Shown one piece after another: positions 1-9,096 of a stretch of DNA of 10,687 bases. The stretch spans positions 1-10,687 of the IMG/VR virus record IMGVR_UViG_2537561977_000023, one strand, 5' to 3'. Within the stretch, counting starts at the first letter, position 1; each line of letters starts with the position of its first letter. The stretch is from a virus. Lineage: Duplodnaviria > Heunggongvirae > Uroviricota > Caudoviricetes. Below the pieces are notes generated by a model, which saw nothing but the letters and a program-made list of their open reading frames with translations, did no database searches and had not been told where the DNA came from. The position numbers and the translations under genes are program-made.

Positions 1-933
1 ACATTCCATTAATGCAATACTGAACTGGCTTACCTGAGTTGTATCAATTAGTGCATCTCTGTTTGAGTTAACGGAACCGGTAACAACATAACCTGACCTG
101 TCAGACCAGCCGGGACCATTCCATGTCTGAACAGATGACAGACCACCAAGGCGAATACCTGTAATAAACCTTGAGTTACATTCTGCCTGCGTATATGCGC
201 CAACATCTCTCGCTGATGGCTTGCGGGTTGTGGTGTAAAACTCTGACCAGTCAGCCTCAAATCCATAACCATCACGCGCTGAACGATAAAAAATACCGCC
301 GTTCTTATAATTCACACGGAACTGTACGGCAGGGCAACTCCCCGTATTCATATTGAAGTGGAGTATTAATGCTGTTGCGCCTTTGATATCTGCATCATAA
401 ACACCGCTATTCCAGTTCCAGCCAACAGCTTTATCATTTGCAACCCTGCTTCCTGTTTGCCCTAAAGCAAATGCAGGCTGCTGGTTTTTCGTGTTGTAGT
501 CTCGTCGCCAGCCAGGAGCGTAAGCATCACCATGATTAATATAAGTGAATTGAGCGTTAGTAATTCCGCCACCGCTGGACGTGCTCGGCGTGGTAACGCG
601 TATGGTCATTGCGCCGCGAGTGCCAATAACTTCCACCACAGCACCTGCAAGACAAATATTTCCGCAACCTGTATCTGTAATGACCTTATTATTTGCATAA
701 GCCCATGAGCCTTTGCACATCCAGTAAGGATGGTTAAATGCTCCCTGACTCTCCAGCCACGAAATAAATTGCGCGGTTGTCCAGACCTGACTATCGCCAC
801 CAATATTCAGCCATGAGCTATATGCGCGGCAGGCACCAATATTTTTGGTGAAGGTATCTTTCCCCGGAATATCTGCGCCGTTCTGGTTTTTCTGTAATGC
901 GCCAGAAGCCTGATTTACCGTTTCCTGTAAACC
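1..933 (-). CDS. Tail-fibre C-terminal variable-domain cassette (Mu Sv'/StfE-like), partial: continues beyond coordinate 1; no start codon, begins at the crossover site (silent orientation)
   Basis: Minus-strand frame with codons starting at coordinates divisible by 3 is open for 313 codons from 939 to the window edge. Translation NLGLQETVNQASGALQKNQNGADIPGKDTFTKNIGACRAYSSWLNIGGDSQVW...NGPGWSDRSGYVVTGSVNSNRDALIDTTQ is G/S/T/N/W/Y-rich like distal tail-fibre domains. Not in the ORF track because it has no in-window stop. Upstream stop TAA at 940-942 lies inside the crossover site. Confidence 0.7.
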
Positions 934-947
934 GAGGTTTTAGATAA
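922..947. other. gix/pix/cix-type 26-bp crossover site for the serine invertase (right-hand site of an invertible tail-fibre segment)
   Basis: TTCCTGTAAACC-GA-GGTTTTAGATAA: two imperfect inverted 12-bp half-sites around a central GA dinucleotide, 25/26 identical to the Mu gix sequence as I recall it (TTCCTGTAAACCGAGGTTTTGGATAA). Located 55 bp upstream of the invertase start, as in Mu/P1/e14. No second copy within the window. Confidence 0.7.
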
Positions 948-1001
948 TGGCCGTTTCCGGCCTGCATGGCATGATTTGCGCTTTTGGACGGGAGATTCAG
1001 C

Positions 1002-1588
1002 GTGCTGATTGGCTATGTAAGGGTATCAACAAATGACCAGAATACAGACCTGCAACGAAACGCTCTTGTTTGTGCAGGATGTGAACAAATATTTGAAGAT
1101 AAATTAAGCGGGACAAAGACAGACCGACCGGGATTAAAACGCGCTTTAAAGCGCCTTCAAAAAGGTGACACGCTGGTTGTCTGGAAACTGGATCGCCTCG
1201 GGCGAAGCATGAAACATCTGATTTCTCTCGTCGGGGAACTACGGGAGCGAGGAATTAATTTTCGCAGTCTGACCGACAGCATAGATACATCTTCTCCAAT
1301 GGGGCGTTTTTCTTCCACGTGATGGGTGCCCTGGCTGAAATGGAACGTGAATTAATTGTTGAACGTACACTGGCCGGACTGGCGGCAGCACGCGCACGGG
1401 GGCGCACAGGCGGACGTCGACCGAAGCTGACAAAAGAACAGCATGAGCAAATAGCAAGGCTGATCAAAAACGGGCACGACAGAAAACAACTGGCAATAAT
1501 TTACGGCATTGGTATATCGACGATTTATCGTTACCACCCCGCAGGAGAATCAATCGGAACAATAGAGAAGAGTCAGGAAACAAAATAA
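1002..1588 (+). pseudogene. Serine DNA invertase, Gin/Pin/Cin/Hin family; reading frame broken by a 1-base deficit in the T5 run at 1307-1311 (may be a sequencing artefact)
   Basis: GTG at 1002 preceded by GGAG (991-994). N-terminus [37 protein letters not shown]... is nearly identical to Gin as recalled, with the catalytic serine motif. ORFs 984..1322 and 1319..1588 are the two halves; adding one T gives ...[19 protein letters not shown]... and a protein of about 195 aa. Confidence 0.85.
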
Positions 1589-1616
1589 CCGCTAATCTGA
1601 CCATTAGCGGTTTTTG
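1588..1616. terminator. Bidirectional intrinsic terminator shared by the convergent invertase (+) and U (-) genes
   Basis: Perfect 9-bp stem ACCGCTAAT/ATTAGCGGT with 6-nt loop, followed by TTTTTGTGTT on the plus strand and TATTTTGTTT on the minus strand. Confidence 0.6.
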
Positions 1617-1623
1617 TGTTAAA

Positions 1624-2118
1624 TCAGAACAACCCTTTAACTGAACTGGCCGCGCTGTTAAGGGATGATGTTACCTTATCTTTGAAGCCGGACAGCATAT
1701 CGCTGAACGATGAGGATTGCAGGCGCTCCCGCAAATCCTCATCACAGCGTTCAAGAGTCAGTGAAAATTCTATCTTTTTCGCCTTACCGTAGCGATCAAA
1801 CTCGGAGCGGGTCGTATTCGTTTCGGTCAGGACATACATGCCGTAAATCTGCCCGACGCCATCAATCAGAGGCCAGGGTCGTCCTGTATACGCCTGCGTG
1901 GTCAGCAGCGACAGCGACACTTCGCCACCTGTAATTTCAGGATAAAGCACACCAGAAAGAACGATGCGCTCATCACCTGCACCGATATACTGCCAGCTTG
2001 CCGAACGGTTAACGCGTTCATTTTTCACATGCCGCCAGCTTTTGTTTTGCTGTAACTGCTGATGCGGCAATGTACGCAGCTCAAAAACAAACATGCCGTA
2101 GATCATCATCATGGCCAT
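1624..2118 (-). CDS. U: P2 gpU-like tail protein
   Basis: 164-aa ORF directly downstream of the tape measure gene, in the position of P2 U; ATG at 2118 or 2112 with GGAG upstream. Family assignment is by synteny and recalled similarity. Confidence 0.6.
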   Translation of the reverse strand: MAMMMIYGMFVFELRTLPHQQLQQNKSWRHVKNERVNRSASWQYIGAGDERIVLSGVLYPEITGGEVSLSLLTTQAYTGRPWPLIDGVGQIYGMYVLTETNTTRSEFDRYGKAKKIEFSLTLERCDEDLRERLQSSSFSDMLSGFKDKVTSSLNSAASSVKGLF

Positions 2119-2124
2119 GACTCC

Positions 2125-4966
2125 TCAATCTTTATCGTAAAAACTGCCACGCCCGGCACGGCCGCGCCGTTCCATTTCTGCCCTGACCATTTCACCGACC
2201 AGTTTCGCCAGTTCGCGGGGATTCTGCGTAACAACGTTATGCAGATGAACATGAATTTCACCACCAAATCCGGAGGCAACAGGCTCCCGGTTACGGGAAG
2301 TTACAGGAACTGATGCCACTGGAGAGCGTATGGCCTCCGCCACCGGGCGGGAGCTGGCCGCAACAACAGGGACCAGCGCCGGAGGCAGCGGAGCCGGGAC
2401 CACGGGTGTGATATTAATTGCGGGGGCAGGCTTACTGACCTGCGCAATCTTCCGCTCCTGCCACTCCCCACGAACAGCAAGTGCGCGGGGCAGGTTCTTA
2501 AAGACAATATCGCCGGGGCCAATGCGTTTTTTCGTCTCATCAACCAGCTTACCTGTGTTATCAGCAATTTTGCTGAGTCTGCGTAGCGTCCCGGTATTGC
2601 TGTCTGTGAGCGGTTTGTTGTCTTTGGGTTTATCACCTCCGGTGCCATTGCCATTTTCCACAGGCTTCGGCGGATTGATTTTCGCCAGGTCCCCCTGAAG
2701 CAAGGCAACCTTGTCCTGAAGAATGGCCGCACGCTGTGCGTCTTCGATTTTCTTGCGCGCCCTTTCCGCTTCATCCGGAAGGACGCCAAGTTTTTCAAGT
2801 ATCCACGCCAGCGTATCCAGTAGCATTTTTGCAGGTGTCAGAACAAGTTGTAACGCACCGCCAAGAACGTTACCGAATATCTCGCCAGCACTGGCACATT
2901 TATCCAGCGTTTCCTTGCTGGACTCCATCGGTGACAGCAGCGATTTAAACCAGTTAAAGACCTGAATAATCCCATCGCGCACGACATCAAAAACAGGGCC
3001 AAACCGTTCAAAGGTTTCGCGCAACGGGGTCAGCCTTTCCATAATCCCGCTGAACACCCCGGCAAAAAATGCCCTGATGGGATCCCAGTATTTCCAGATA
3101 AGAACGGCAGCTCCGGCAAGCGCAGCCACGATAAGACTAACCGGACTGAACAGCGCCCCGATAGCGCCACCAAGTAAAGAAACGGAACCCGTCACCATTC
3201 CCCATAATGCAGGCAGAACCCTGACAACATTCATTGATTCGGTCAGGAGAGAAAACCGAGACGCAACGTAGCCAGCTTCCCGTGAAGCACCCCAATAACC
3301 AGAGACAACGAACCAACCGTTGCTGTTGTCGCCAGCAGTGCGCCTCCCGCTATCAGTAACTGGCGCGTCAGTGCCGGGTGGGCCTGCGCCAGCGCCGTCA
3401 CCTTTGAGACAACCCGCGTGAGCCACTGCGTGACAGAACGCAGCGGACCGTCAACCAGATCACTGATGCGAATACGCAGACCTTCCCATGCACTGCCGAG
3501 TGATTTCAGGTTGCCATCAAGGTTATTGGCCATAACCTTTGCCGTGCGTTCTGCCTCACCGCGCGCGCCTTCAAGTTCTTTTCTCAGTTTGGCTAAGAAG
3601 CCGTCACCTGCCGCATCAACGAGGCCCATAAATGATGTGAAAGCCTCTTCTCCGGCAATGTCCTTAAAGAACGATACCCGGTCAACCTCCCCGTATTTGC
3701 GGGTGGCTTTATAGAGATCGGCCAGCACATTCTCCATCGGGCGCATTTTGCCTTTGGCGTCAGCAACTGACACCCCCAGCTCTTTCAGTGCTTCTGCCGC
3801 TGCCTTTGGCGGTGATGACAGATTGGCCAGGCTTTTACGCAACGCTGTACCCGCATCACTCCCCCTGATACCCATCTTCGCCAGCACGCCCGCCATCGCT
3901 GCGGCCTGCTCCAGCGATATTCCCAGCTTACCCGCCACCGGACCTGCATATTTCATGGTTTCGCCCAGTGCGCGAAGGTCAGTGTTGGTACGGGTAAACG
4001 CTGCGGTAAGTGTGTCACCGACCCGGTCCATCTGGTCAGCAGAGAGGCCGAACTGCGTCAGGATATTGGAACCAATATCCGCCGTCTCGCCGAGGTCCAT
4101 ACCGCCAGCCGTTGCCATGCTCAGCACGCCGGGAAGCGCAGCCTGAATGGCCTGCGGTGTGAAACCAGCCATTGCAAGAAATGCCTGTCCACTGGCGGCA
4201 TCGCCTGCGGTGAACTGCGTTTCAGAGCCAAGTTTTAACGCCTGCTCACGCAGCGCCTTAAACTGCGGGCTGTTTTTATCGATTCGCGTCAGTGCCTGAA
4301 CACGGGACATCTCTTTCCCGAACCCGATAGCGGGCTGCAAAAAACGCCCGGCAGCATAGCCGCCCGCTGCCGCCGCACCTGTTGCCAGCGCACCACCTGT
4401 TTTCAGTTTTCCCGCTGTTTCCTGCGCGCGTGAATACCGCTCACGCGCCTGCGTTACACGCGCAAGCGCCCGCCGTTCGCGTTCAAGCTGGTTGTTGTAT
4501 TGTCCGGTGCGTCTGATGGCCTGCTGGATGGTGTTATCGCTGCCTGTCAGGGAATGCCGTGGCGTTTCAGCTCTCCGCCAAGCTCCCGCATTTTCTGAAT
4601 TTCCCGTGTGCGCGATTCATTCAGGCGTTCAAGCCGGATGCTTAACTGCTGCATCAGCTTTTGTTGTTTTTCGCTGAGCACTGTACCCGTGCGTTGTAAC
4701 TGATTAAGGGCGTTAAGCTGGCGTCGTGCTTTCACGATCCCCGCATCCGCTTTACTGACAGCGTCACGGGCGCGCTCAAATGAACGCGCCTGACGCCCGA
4801 GATTTTTGATCGCCCCCTGCGTTCGCTGGATGGAGTCACCAAACTGCCCCATCAGGCGGCGGGCGTTTTCGGCAGGCCGGGTCAGCCTGTCAACGGCGCT
4901 GAAAGCGACCCGGATATCAAGAGTCTTCATTGTCTGCATTCCCGCTGCGAAGTGCCGCCCGCTCAC
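2125..4966 (-). pseudogene. T: Tail tape measure protein (P2 gpT-like), about 940 codons, split over three frames by two 1-base deficits (may be sequencing artefacts)
   Basis: ORFs 4547..4966, 3243..4340 and 2125..3426 are consecutive pieces of one gene. Coiled-coil-like N-terminal part, hydrophobic glycine-rich segments (LLIAGGALLATTATVGSLSLVIGVL; GAIGALFSPVSLIVAALAGAAVLIW) typical of tape measure proteins. Frame restored by adding one base at G3 4550-4552 and at A4 3252-3255 (plus-strand bases). Start uncertain: GTG 4966, ATG 4939 or ATG 4930. Confidence 0.75.
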
Positions 4967-5446
4967 GCCAGCTGACCACTTCGCCGGGCGTCATCATGAA
5001 GATTTCGGCGGGCGACCAGTTAAAAATAACGGCAATATCTGCCACAAAGTCTTCTATGTGCTCAAAGCACACAACCGTGATCAGGCTTCCGTCGCCTGTT
5101 CGTTCTTCCCGCCAGAGTCCGCACCGCTCAAAAAATTTACGGCAACCACACATAACTGAATAAAGTCACGGGATGCCATTTTTTTGATCGTCACTTCATC
5201 CAGTCGCGGTGATGTCACGCGTGACAGCAGCGTAAACATGGATTCCGCTTTCAGATTCAGCACATCAGACAGCGACAAATCTCGCAGAGATCCAGCCTGC
5301 TCAATAGCTCCGGTGATCTCCACATACGTGATTTTTTCGCCGCCTCGCTCAATTGGTTGGGTAAGTTTTACGCCACGCTCACTGGTTTCTTTCACAGTGT
5401 CAGCAACGACCGTGTTTTCGGTATCGATGTTTTTCGTCTCTTTCAT
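4917..5446 (-). CDS. Tail assembly chaperone E+E' fusion made by programmed -1 ribosomal frameshift (P2 E/E' type; analogous to lambda G/GT)
   Basis: The E frame (5446..5081) and the overlapping -1 frame (ORF 4917..5153) are joined at slippery heptamer T TTT TTG (minus strand; plus coordinates 5129-5135). Position immediately upstream of the tape measure gene, as expected. Confidence 0.65.
5081..5446 (-). CDS. E: Tail assembly chaperone E (P2 gpE-like), 121 aa
   Basis: ATG at 5446 with AAGGAG 5 nt upstream; located between the tube and tape measure genes; contains the slippery site near its 3' end. Confidence 0.7.
   Translation of the reverse strand: MKETKNIDTENTVVADTVKETSERGVKLTQPIERGGEKITYVEITGAIEQAGSLRDLSLSDVLNLKAESMFTLLSRVTSPRLDEVTIKKMASRDFIQLCVVAVNFLSGADSGGKNEQATEA
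5129..5135 (-). other. Slippery heptanucleotide T TTT TTG for the E/E' -1 programmed frameshift
   Basis: X XXY YYZ heptamer in the E zero frame (AAT TTT TTG); the -1 frame stays open for 70 further codons to the stop at 4917-4919. Confidence 0.6.
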
Positions 5447-5500
5447 CAGGAAACTCCTTTCAGTCAGAGGCGACGCACTGCGCCGCCTGCATATTACTTA

Positions 5501-6011
5501 TCAGCCAAGCCCGAGCGCGGAACGGATGCGATCGGGCACAATGTCCCTGCCGTCCTTCCGGTAAATGAAGTTCAGCAGGTCAATCTCCCACAACGGGCGA
5601 TCGTTAACACTCAGCTTGTAGTAGGTGTTTTTAATGGCGTAAGTGTGTGATGTGGCTTCGCCCTGTTTGGCTTCCCCCATATCAATTTCCGTCACACGTC
5701 CGCGCATTTCGACTTCATACAGGTCGCTTTCAGCGTCGGTGTAGTATTCACCCGCAAAACGCAGCAGCGTACCGTCAATCGTGCCGCCATACTTCAGGAA
5801 CAACTCACGAACTGCGCCCCCATGACAAAGCTCGCATCAAGCGCGGAGTCGTCCAGGCCGAGATCAATACTTACTGCCCCCATCATGCCACCACCCCGGT
5901 AGCTGTCGGTTTTGCGCGTCAGTTTAGGCAGAGTGACGGACGTCACCTTACCCACTTCGTTTTCACCATCCACAAACAGCGTAAAAAACGAAGATTTTTT
6001 GGTACAGCCAT
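5501..6011 (-). pseudogene. FII: Major tail tube protein (P2 gpFII-like), about 170 codons, interrupted by two 1-base deficits (may be sequencing artefacts)
   Basis: ATG at 6011 overlaps the sheath stop (TGATG) and has GGGAGG upstream. Pieces MAVPK / KSSFFTLFVDGENEVGKVTSVTLPKLTRKTDSYRGGGMMGAVSIDLGLDDSALDASFVMG / GAVRELFLKYGGTIDGTLLRFAGEYY...SALGLG. Frame restored by adding one base to T6 5995-6000 and to C5 5817-5821 (plus-strand runs). Confidence 0.7.
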
Positions 6012-7194
6012 CAGACACCTCCCAGCACCGCAAATGCGGGACCAAAGAATTCATCAGTAAACGTCTGGTAAAGCTCCATATCTTCCAGTGGCGGAACGGG
6101 CGTATATTTGTAGCGAATACGCACGCGCCCCTGACGTAAATCCGTGGTGCCGTTATCCACCACGTCATACCAGCACGACGCCCCAATCAGTTTCCCGGCA
6201 GTCACCAGTGAATCCAGTTTTGCCCTGATGGCACTGATAACATCCTTCACGTTCGCAGGCGTCAGTGGACTGTCGATGGTTTCAAACTGCGCTTCCGCAA
6301 TTGAATCAGCCAGCACCTGTGCGGTTCGGGTATACACCTCAAAGATGTAGGCGTTCGTTTCCGGTGTGCGGTTGCCCCAGAAGCGGAACCCGTTACGACG
6401 AATAATGGTCGTGATTTCTTTGTTGTTGAGGCTGTTGGCATCACTGTCTTCGGCCTGTAACGACCAGAACACATGCCTCGACATCCCCAGCACATTTTTA
6501 ACCGGAACGTTGGACAGTGATTTGTGCCATCCCTGCTCATGGTCAATGTACGCACGAAGGCCGCACGCACAGGCAGGCGCGGGGAACGTTTCGTTTTTGC
6601 CACTTTTCGGGTTCCAGGCGATGAAGTCCGGCCATAAGAGCATCACCTCACGTTCGTTGAATTTCTGGCGGTAGGTAATCGCCTCAGCCATCGTGTTACA
6701 GCCATGACATGAGGCATACACAAACGCGCGCAGTTTACCTGCAATCACGCACAGGGATTTTGCACCGCCTCCGTGTCCAGCTCCGGCGCGGCCAGAATAC
6801 GCGGACGGTATCCGATGCTTTCATCCTGCTCTGCAACAAGCAGCGCATACATCCCCGTATAGCTGCCGTCATCCTCAGAACCACCGATAACCAGTTGATC
6901 CTGCGTCTTTCCGTCTTCTTCTTTGTGTTCAGCCACGCGAACGACGATCACCTTTGTGCTCACCTGGTCTGCGATGGCCTTAAGCGCACGATAAAGCGTC
7001 CCCGTTGTCCCGCATTTTCCCAGCACGTCATTGACGCGGGTCAGCAGTGTGGGCTTGTTCAGCGGGAACAGCTTCGCGTCCGCATCATCCGCCGTTGCCA
7101 CGATACCGATAACGCTGGAATCAACATCGTTAATCGCTGTTACCAGGTCGGTATTTTCCGTAACACGGGCACCATGAAAACGAGTTTCACTCAT
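6011..7194 (-). pseudogene. FI: Tail sheath protein (P2 gpFI-like), about 394 codons, interrupted by one 1-base deficit (may be a sequencing artefact)
   Basis: ORFs 6745..7194 (N-terminal) and 6011..6748 (C-terminal) are one gene. Motifs ILAAPELDTEAVQ, GFRFWGNRT, YTRTAQV and YTPVPPLE match P2 sheath as recalled. ATG at 7194 with AAGGGG upstream. Frame restored by adding one base to T4 6758-6761 (plus strand). Confidence 0.8.
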
Positions 7195-7351: not shown

Positions 7352-8461
7352 ATGACCGACACCACCATGCAATTGCTCAGTCAGAGCACAGCCCCCGTGA
7401 AAATGCCGGATTTTGATATTCTCGCGGAGGGTAAAACGCTGTCCGGCGTGGCAGAGCGCCTGATGAGCCTGTCGCTGACCGACAACCGGGGATTTGAAGC
7501 GGACCAGCTCACCATCACGCTGGATGATGCGGATGGTCAGTTGCAGCTACCACCACGGGGCGCGCGCCTGACGGTTCTCATTGGCTGGAAAGGAGAACCA
7601 CTGACAGAAAAAGGCACTTATATTGTTGATGAAATCGCTCACGAAGGACCGCCGGACAGGCTGACTGTTTCAGCCAGAAGCGCAGATTTTCGGGATGAAT
7701 TTAACGTTAAACGTGAGGTGTCCTGGCATGATGTGACCGTTGAGCGTGTGGTATCCGCCATCGCTCACCGGTACGGTCTGAAACCGCAAATCAGCGAAAT
7801 GCTGATGGATATTGAAATCGACCACGCCGACCAGACCGAAGAAAGCGACATGTCCTTCCTTACGCGCATGGCGGAAATGCTGGGCGCAATCACTACGGTA
7901 AAAAGCGGTAATCTGTTATTCATCATGCCAGGCGGTGGCGTGAACGCACAGGGCCAGCCGTTGCCCTCGTTCGCCATCACGCGCAGCAGTGGCGATCGCC
8001 ATCAGTTCCGCATTGCTGACCGCGAAGCGTATACGGGGGTACGCGCTTACTGGCTTGATCTTAATTACGGGAAAAAGAAAAAAGTCAGCGTGAAACGCCG
8101 CAAACCGCCCAAGCCCAAAAAGGAGAAAAGCAGCAGCCGTGAAGGTGATTATATGGAAGGCGCGGAAGGCAATGTGTTTGTGTTACGCAAGACTTATCAG
8201 AACGAGCAGGCAGCAAGACGCGCAGCGGCGGCAAAGTGGCAGCAGCTACAACGCGGAGCCGCATCATTCTCCATCACGCTGGCGCGTGGACGTGCAGAAC
8301 TCTACCCCGAAATGCATGGCACGGTAACAGGATTTAAAAGCGAGATTGATAATCAGGACTGGATCATTGCAAAAGCCGGGCACACCATTGATAACAGCGG
8401 CTTTACCACACAGCTTGAGCTTGAGGCAAAAATCCCGGAATGGATAGCAGAAACAGAGTGA
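7352..8461 (+). CDS. D: P2 gpD-like tail protein (phage late control D family), 369 aa
   Basis: ATG at 7352 preceded by GGAGGGAG (7341-7348). The track's 7220 start adds a low-complexity N-terminal extension with no RBS and overlaps the FI promoter region, so 7352 is preferred. Confidence 0.75.
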   Translation: MTDTTMQLLSQSTAPVKMPDFDILAEGKTLSGVAERLMSLSLTDNRGFEADQLTITLDDADGQLQLPPRGARLTVLIGWKGEPLTEKGTYIVDEIAHEGPPDRLTVSARSADFRDEFNVKREVSWHDVTVERVVSAIAHRYGLKPQISEMLMDIEIDHADQTEESDMSFLTRMAEMLGAITTVKSGNLLFIMPGGGVNAQGQPLPSFAITRSSGDRHQFRIADREAYTGVRAYWLDLNYGKKKKVSVKRRKPPKPKKEKSSSREGDYMEGAEGNVFVLRKTYQNEQAARRAAAAKWQQLQRGAASFSITLARGRAELYPEMHGTVTGFKSEIDNQDWIIAKAGHTIDNSGFTTQLELEAKIPEWIAETE

Positions 8462-8503
8462 GCAACTTAGAATAGCGGCAACACCACGTTAAGGGAGGTC
8501 GCT

Positions 8504-8764
8504 ATGTTCCGTTGTCCGCTTTGTGGCGCATCTGCCCGTATCCGCACCAGTCGTCCGGAAAATGATTCAAACACCGTGCGGCAAAAGTATTACCAGTGTA
8601 ACAACCTGGAATGCGGCGTATGCTTCTCAACACTGGAAGCTTTCCATAAATTCACATCAAAACACGCCTCCGGCGTTCACTCTTCAGAAGGTATCCCGTG
8701 GCATGAACTGCCAGCTTCACACAGGGGAAACAATCAGATGAGTTTGCCTTTACCTCAGAATTAA
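8504..8764 (+). CDS. ogr: Ogr/Delta-family zinc-finger late-gene transcriptional activator, 86 aa
   Basis: MFRCPLCGASARIRTSR...YYQCNNLECGVCF has the CxxC...CxxxxC zinc-binding pattern and close similarity to P2 Ogr as recalled (MFHCPLC...HQCQNVNC). ATG at 8504 with AGGGAGG 5 nt upstream. Sits after D, as in P2. Confidence 0.8.
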   Translation: MFRCPLCGASARIRTSRPENDSNTVRQKYYQCNNLECGVCFSTLEAFHKFTSKHASGVHSSEGIPWHELPASHRGNNQMSLPLPQN

Positions 8765-8852: not shown

Positions 8853-9089
8853 ATGTGGAAAGGCCCCGGAAAACATTTTTGTTTAACCGAGGCCCTAACA
8901 CTTCTTACCTTCGCAAGTAGAAGGTTAGCGCCTCTCCTCTCAGGAGACAAGCGTTATGACGCAAATTCCGTTAAAAACCCTGTTACTTTGCATAACTGCG
9001 GTAGCGATAATCTGGATCCTCCACACATCACCGTGCGAGTTACGATTCAGGTTTGCTGGCACGGAAATTGCGGCATTCTTACTATGTAA
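8853..9089 (+). CDS. mok-like overlapping reading frame of the hok locus (translational coupling frame), 78 aa
   Basis: ORF begins 103 nt upstream of the hok ATG and ends 7 nt before the hok stop in another frame, the arrangement known for mok/hok. Its own sequence is not distinctive. Confidence 0.4.
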   Translation: MWKGPGKHFCLTEALTLLTFASRRLAPLLSGDKRYDANSVKNPVTLHNCGSDNLDPPHITVRVTIQVCWHGNCGILTM

Positions 9090-9096
9090 TAAGTAA
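8956..9096 (+). CDS. Hok/Gef-family type I toxin (small membrane peptide), 46 aa; absent from ORF track
   Basis: Translation MTQIPLKTLLLCITAVAIIWILHTSPCELRFRFAGTEIAAFLLCNK: N-terminal hydrophobic helix followed by the conserved C-E-L-R-F-R ... E-(V/I)-A-A-F core seen in Hok, HokB and Gef as recalled. AGGAG at 8942-8946, 9 nt before the ATG. Confidence 0.75.
   Translation: MTQIPLKTLLLCITAVAIIWILHTSPCELRFRFAGTEIAAFLLCNK

Follow-up and report, generated by a model that had tools for sequence, protein, structure and literature searches.

Right-hand end of a probable Mu-type invertible tail-fibre segment, with a frameshifted Gin-family invertase, in a P88-like prophage

Bases 1-1588 of the window (by which we mean the whole analysed stretch of 10,687 nucleotides) most probably represent the right-hand end of a Mu-type G segment in a P88-like prophage residing next to serS; we estimate the probability of this reading at about 0.93. 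The prophage is probably carried by E. coli LT-68. A Gin/Pin-type invertible fibre switch had been proposed in the initial annotation, made from the sequence alone, and this proposal is supported by a Gin orthologue, a site close to gixR and a cassette similar to Mu S'. Observed in this analysis were the site and the open frame, their homologies, the architecture of relatives, the in-frame fusion of the cassette and natural flips in relatives.

The window comprises bases 1-10,687 of contig ADUP01000041.1 (GCA_000188815.2), and its left edge is the physical end of that contig. Of the two sites and two cassettes of a G segment, this sequence contains one each. Because the window starts at the contig end, the constant part of the fibre gene and the partner site could be demonstrated in relatives and not in this genome, for which we infer the presence of the partner half. 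Coordinates of the individual features are collected in Table 1.

Table 1. Features of the window and their coordinates
Feature	Position	Strand	Basis or remark
Silent alternative C-terminal tail-fibre cassette, homologue of Mu Sv' (G(-) receptor-binding part)	1..939	-	DNA, protein and structure matches
gixR-type 26-bp crossover site TTCCTGTAAACCGAGGTTTTAGATAA	922-947	+	Site search; alignment with Mu gixR
Layout of the crossover site: inner half TTCCTGTAAACC, core GA, outer half GGTTTTAGATAA	922-947
Gin-family serine DNA invertase gene, frameshifted	1002..1588	+	Pfam, identity to Gin, structures
Invertase fragment of 106 aa (catalytic domain)	1002-1322		Separated from the next fragment by a -1 frameshift
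Invertase fragment of 88 aa (HTH)	1322-1588
5' invertase region matching the enhancer-bearing part of Mu gin	1002..1171	+	Identity to Mu gin
T5 run, site of the frameshift (T6 in Mu, P88 and most relatives)	1307..1311	+
Bidirectional terminator-like hairpin between the invertase and the convergent tail gene U	1587..1612	.
Single-base deletions	~28, 1306-1311, ~3251, ~4552, ~5816, 5988, 6762

The complete switch is most probably organised as follows. The fibre gene H would start with a constant 5' part, situated off the contig, and would then run into a 26-bp gix site. Past this site, two convergent sets would follow, each consisting of a variable fibre C-terminus and an assembly chaperone (one Sv/U-like, the other Sv'/U'-like), and the segment would end, directly ahead of the invertase gene, with a second, inverted gix site. 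Strand exchange at the central GA of the two sites would be performed by a serine invertase of Gin type, together with Fis on an enhancer in the 5' part of the invertase's own gene, and would flip the segment of roughly 3.07 kb. In the orientation found here, the Sv' cassette would be silent, as it abuts the invertase and its upstream side is closed by TAA of the outer half-site. After the flip, the cassette would be fused in frame to H at the junction of ...IEYL and GLQETVNQ..., providing the alternative receptor specificity of Mu G(-) type. Since the invertase gene reads as a frameshifted pseudogene, such a flip would need an invertase acting in trans, unless the frameshift is an assembly error.

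Crossover site, silent cassette and invertase

The crossover site differs in 1 of its 26 bases from Mu gixL and likewise in 1 from gixR. It is separated from the GTG start codon of the invertase (1002) by 54 nt, and this whole arrangement aligns without gaps to Mu gixR and gin. The gix-like site noticed upstream of the invertase, in the position that gixR takes before gin, was thus identified correctly. It is the sole match in the 10.7-kb window when up to 3 mismatches are allowed (chance expectation 0.00, from shuffled sequence) as well as the only match there to a degenerate gix/hix-type pattern, TTNNNNNAAACCNNGGTTTNNNNNAA; neither search revealed a second gix-like site within the window. 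Exactly the same 26 bases are found in P88 and in the related loci L001, L009, L013, L021 and L022. The outer half of the site, on the invertase side, holds an in-frame TAA of the minus strand (942-940).

Immediately after this TAA, a stop-free minus-strand frame of 313 codons extends from base 939 to base 1. Translation of the minus strand from base 945 reads I-stop-NLGLQETVNQ... and then continues stop-free down to base 1. There is neither ATG nor RBS at the start of this frame, and no sigma-70-like promoter was found in 1-1700 on either strand. A start-less frame of this length, running from the crossover and unseen in the ORF track, is therefore confirmed; it is missing from the ORF listing because it runs off the window end. 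The accompanying claim that the cassette continues past coordinate 1 holds only in part. The frame is still open at base 1, but the cassette is nearly complete there: in relatives the native stop lies 21-23 nt further left, so that the window carries 313 of about 320 cassette codons. Moreover, a 1-nt deletion (CC to C) is present at about base 28 in comparison with all five aligned relatives (5/5). As a result, the final 9-10 of the 313 codons are read in a shifted frame, and ...QVSQFSIALMEC... takes the place of the conserved C-terminus ...QARPIQYCINGTWYNAGSI.

The cassette protein shares 95.4% identity with Mu Sv' across 302 aa. In Pfam it gives only a weak match to gp37_C. Comparison with solved structures, one of the checks suggested in the initial annotation, leads to PDB 8ju3 ('Tail fiber protein S, Tail fiber protein S''; E = 8.4e-201), that is, to the receptor-binding end of the fibre. 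A frame closing just beyond base 1 and devoid of fibre homology had been named as a finding that would speak against the switch; in relatives the frame does close there, yet its resemblance to known fibres is overwhelming. An internal ATG within the cassette frame is taken by annotation pipelines as the start of a "tail fiber protein" of 219-247 aa, and the region thus shows how a silent cassette is mis-called as a free-standing fibre protein.

In Mu, the G(+) phage, which expresses S and U, has E. coli K-12 as its host, while the G(-) phage (S' and U') infects E. coli C, Citrobacter freundii, Shigella sonnei, Enterobacter cloacae, Serratia and Erwinia (PMC4406740). Judging from 95% identity, the silent cassette of the window should confer receptor specificity of the Mu G(-) type.

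The gene downstream of the site is split by the T5 run, and this copy contains no intact invertase frame, a circumstance absent from the initial annotation. When one T is restored, the gene encodes a 195-aa invertase with Pfam matches to Resolvase (E = 1.3e-50) and HTH_7 (E = 1.6e-13). The repaired product is a small serine recombinase and Gin homologue with an N-terminal catalytic domain (Ser9) and a C-terminal HTH. It shares 85.6% identity with Gin over 181 aa, and its best solved structures are the Gin entries 4m6f and 3uj3 (E = 8.8e-101 / about 1e-100). We identify it as a Gin orthologue.

The initial annotation had pointed out that in Gin, Hin and Cin systems the 5' part of the invertase gene bears a Fis-dependent enhancer. 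Over its first 170 nt, the present gene is identical to Mu gin at 168/170 positions; the differences fall at positions 111 and 116, and the first 110 nt are identical. In Mu, the coding region of gin contains three Fis sites, which lie some 550 bp before the start of mom (PMC3378877); placed on Mu coordinates, this location corresponds to roughly +60 to +170 of gin. A crude weighted scan with a 15-bp Fis motif yielded numerous weak candidates, which were shared with Mu, and singled out no clean pair of Fis sites 48 bp apart in the expected region. Because the motif scan was non-specific, the enhancer is assigned by identity to Mu gin: its sequence is conserved, and Fis binding together with enhancer function is putative.

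Partner site and inversion in related prophages

The partner site and the constant region were expected to lie outside the window. Indeed, the window contains none, and relatives have an inverted site within the fibre gene H, about 3.07 kb to the left. This was found in P88, L001, L002, L009, L013, L021 and L022. The partner site of relatives reads TTCCTGTAAACC GA GGTATTCGATAA, and the core GA is common to both sites. In the genome under study, the partner would be the inverted site TTATCGAATACC TC GGTTTACAGGAA, situated about 3.07 kb to the left together with the constant part of H. Measured from centre to centre, the two sites are 3,071-3,075 bp apart in P88, L013 and L009, 3,063 bp in L001 and 3,090 bp in L021, and 3,058 bp in Mu.

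Between the sites, relatives harbor in this order the variable end of H, a chaperone gene, a chaperone gene on the opposite strand and the cassette of the window. The variable end of H is 68% identical to Mu Sv. The chaperones of L013 are 89.7% identical to Mu U and 98.9% identical to Mu U', respectively; the U'-like gene directly follows the cassette in relatives and falls outside the window here. All relatives with both this site and this cassette resemble Mu in having exactly two sites and two sets of cassette plus chaperone.

The reading phase across the site fits the proposed fusion. H reads through its own site as ...IEY LGLQETVN..., in the same phase as I-stop-N LGLQETVN of the window. 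When L013 was inverted in silico at the central dinucleotide, a 700-aa in-frame fibre was obtained, the C-terminal 320 residues of which are the cassette. This C-terminus matches the expressed H of L009, which represents a natural fused form. The proposed in-frame fusion of the cassette to the constant fibre N-terminus after inversion is thus corroborated in relatives. In L003 and L005 as well as in L009, the cassette of the window occupies the expressed position as part of H and the other cassette adjoins the invertase. Across relatives, the exchange of inner flanks between the two outer half-sites takes place precisely at the core.

Both orientations occur among relatives. Complete E. coli genomes (n = 5,426) include 136 with the Sv'-invertase junction found in the window and 228 with the alternative junction; in genomes with such junctions, the matching places number 2 at the median and 6 at most. 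A flip is also seen between parent 2020N21-110 (L021) and its derivative 2020N21-110-24 (L022). Their flanks are 100% and 99.97% identical, while exactly the inter-site segment (3828-6943 in L021, 3505-6661 in L022) is inverted, and the invertase is an intact 195-aa protein in both. The flipped copy of this pair shows 33 gap openings and "frameshifted" annotations, which is expected if reads of both orientations were polished together.

Several further observations concern the segment in individual loci. In other strains, draft contigs (L029, L030 and L032) begin where the crossover site has its outer edge, 54-62 nt before the invertase GTG, and the contig of the window itself starts at the boundary between cassette and chaperone; draft assemblies tend to break at or near this invertible segment. 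L023-L027 carry a third, shorter cassette type in place of Sv', with the site-proximal flank tattttctccccgcttgtgccgagTTCTCGTAAACC, and only the last ~370 nt of it resemble the cassette of the window (about 86% identity). In L001 the Sv'-type inner flank occurs at both sites, which points to recombination between cassettes. An IS3-family element interrupts the outer half of the invertase-side site in L003, L005 and L014 (TTCCTGTAAACCGAGGTTTGAGGTGT), the last of these being probably Shigella sonnei 3233-85; this insertion should lock the segment.

Single-base deletions and alternative explanations

Altogether, seven single-base deletions distinguish the window from relatives that are 98.7% identical to it and have none of the seven. 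The genes broken are the cassette (at its end), the invertase, the tape-measure gene (2 deletions), the tube gene (2) and the sheath gene (1). Five of the seven are contractions of same-base runs, namely CC to C, T6 to T5, A5 to A4, A3 to A2 and C6 to C5. Coding regions of the window showed no insertions, no nonsense codons and no larger deletions. If the deletions in the invertase and in the cassette are both real, this copy cannot flip by itself and the C-terminus of its cassette is wrong.

The seven deletions are also the main argument for regarding the locus as a dead remnant, that is, a decaying prophage in which invertase and cassette are pseudogenes and the G segment is a fossil without switching. 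Existence of the T5 invertase allele in independent assemblies adds to it: the exact 106-aa product occurs in 9 contigs by count of the protein collection, and we read 14 contigs carrying it, so the allele is genuine in genomes other than this one. It is the 106-aa product that marks the frameshift allele. The 88-aa fragment, present in 232 contigs, was rejected for counting frameshifts, as many contigs simply begin there and L014, for example, has T6. Against decay, the deletions are without exception 1 nt long, most of them run contractions, and the same genes are intact in relatives; such a pattern is compatible with errors of an early (2011-era) draft assembly, which may explain it at least as well as real decay. 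L013 has the T5 invertase too, yet its other tail genes are called full-length. Finally, L024 and L025, both with T5, have their segments in opposite orientations; a frameshift in the invertase thus need not mean that the switch is frozen. We consider the remnant possible, though rather doubtful.

Two other explanations deal with the nature of the cassette itself. Some P2-like prophages with identical gpU (L004, L007, L008 and L010-L012) contain a shufflon-like multi-cassette fibre switch, in which an invertase of 199 aa accompanies 3-6 short Collar-domain cassettes, whose order varies. The window might accordingly be imagined as part of such a system, of the Min/p15B type or of the 199-aa-invertase type, with a number of crossover sites and more than two alternative fibre ends. 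Those loci, however, contain no match to the present site within 5 mismatches, and relatives with both this site and this cassette are uniformly of the two-site, two-set design, which makes the multi-cassette system highly improbable. The internal-ATG calls of annotation pipelines would suit an ordinary expressed fibre gene with a misread 5' end, with no switch and only coincidental resemblance of the site to gix. We find this scarcely credible: TAA within the site closes the frame, the start and RBS are absent at its beginning, the pipeline calls split a domain found uninterrupted in both Mu S' and the expressed H of L009, and the site match has a chance expectation of 0.00.

The Mu-type G segment thus stays our preferred reading, and the pair L024/L025 raises the question of how prophages with the T5 allele might switch. 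Their flanks are 100% and 99.96% identical, and the 2.7-kb segment (2239-4950 in both) shows 8 mismatches in comparison with 0-2 in the flanks. This pattern suggests inversion in trans, or gene conversion. The invertases Gin, Cin, Pin and Hin are able to cross-complement, and the simplest reading of flips in T5 prophages is that the invertase is supplied in trans by another prophage. A general proposal, that T5-frameshift prophages still flip through trans invertases of co-resident prophages or through reversible T6/T5 on/off control, is speculative and in our view unlikely to be correct. If true, it would add a second control layer over the classic switch.

Prophage context and relation to known systems

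The rest of the window contains P2-type U, T, E, E', FII and FI, then D, ogr and a hok-like ORF, and finally serS; Pfam matches to GpU, GPD and Ogr_Delta were obtained among these flanking genes. The gene order is that of P88 (genus Xuanwuvirus) and of dozens of prophages, in which the FI-U block is inverted relative to P2. The operon FI-FII-E-E'-T-U (1624-7194, minus strand) runs opposite to D/ogr (7352-8764, plus strand) and to H/G, unlike in P2, and P88 and all related prophages that were examined show this arrangement without exception. Given the opposite-strand position of FI-U, D needs its own promoter in the 157-bp FI-D spacer; an Ogr-type late-promoter dyad, TGT-N12-ACA, was not found in this spacer. 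The idea that the FI-U block is a second, larger inversion made by the invertase was rejected, as the arrangement does not vary among P88 and relatives and the borders of the block contain no gix-like site. A 46-aa hok/gef-like ORF (8956-9096, plus strand) lies between ogr and serS at the prophage end, and relatives bear a weak HOK_GEF Pfam mark at the same position. A scan of the whole window at Rfam gathering thresholds detected no RNA family.

Escherichia phage P88 (Xuanwuvirus, Peduoviridae; KP063541) is similar to the window in its site, in the silent cassette next to the invertase and in gene order including the opposite-strand FI-U block; bases 6-1700 share 96.1% DNA identity with it. 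Unlike the window, P88 carries its invertase (195 aa) and its tail genes in intact form. The phage can be induced and forms plaques (PMC5285337); the paper describing it does not mention inversion at all, although the module is present and annotated in P88.

Bases 1-1380 are 93.1% identical in DNA to Mu 34090-35471, a stretch that covers the C-terminal part of S', the G-segment boundary and gin; it is annotated as the S' C-terminal part expressed in G(-) phage and serine recombinase Gin. The layout of Sv' cassette, 26-bp site, 54 nt and invertase is common to both, the segment of relatives measures 3.07 kb in comparison with 3.06 kb in Mu, and both chaperones are matched. There are differences as well. 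The constant part in relatives is the N-terminus of a P2-type H of about 380 aa (Phage_tail_fib + Phage_fiber_2), whereas Mu Sc has about 170 aa, and the carrier is a P2-like prophage instead of a transposable phage. The outer half-site next to H (GGTATTCGATAA) and the one next to the invertase (GGTTTTAGATAA) depart from those of Mu at a few bases. The C-terminal DNA-binding third of the invertase diverges from Gin, DNA similarity to Mu stopping at about base 1380, and the gene is frameshifted here, unlike gin of Mu.

The C segment of P1/P7 with Cin, the P segment of e14 with Pin and the Hin system of Salmonella belong to the same family of Fis/enhancer-dependent serine invertases. They reside on other host elements, and their cix, pix and hix sites differ in sequence; in the case of Hin, it is a promoter that is flipped and not a coding cassette. 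The cassette DNA is also matched by phages D108, SfMu, P7 and P1, and the fibre cassettes of P7 and P1 share 85-96% DNA identity with bases 6-900 of the window.

Mosaicism of fibre modules among Mu, P1 and P2 has been recognised since the early 1990s. Taken as a whole, the module described here is a near-copy of the archetypal Gin/G-segment switch of Mu; since that system is well known, we regard the present one as ordinary and not new. It illustrates that the G-segment module circulates almost unchanged (93-96% DNA identity) among phages of Mu, P1 and P2 type.
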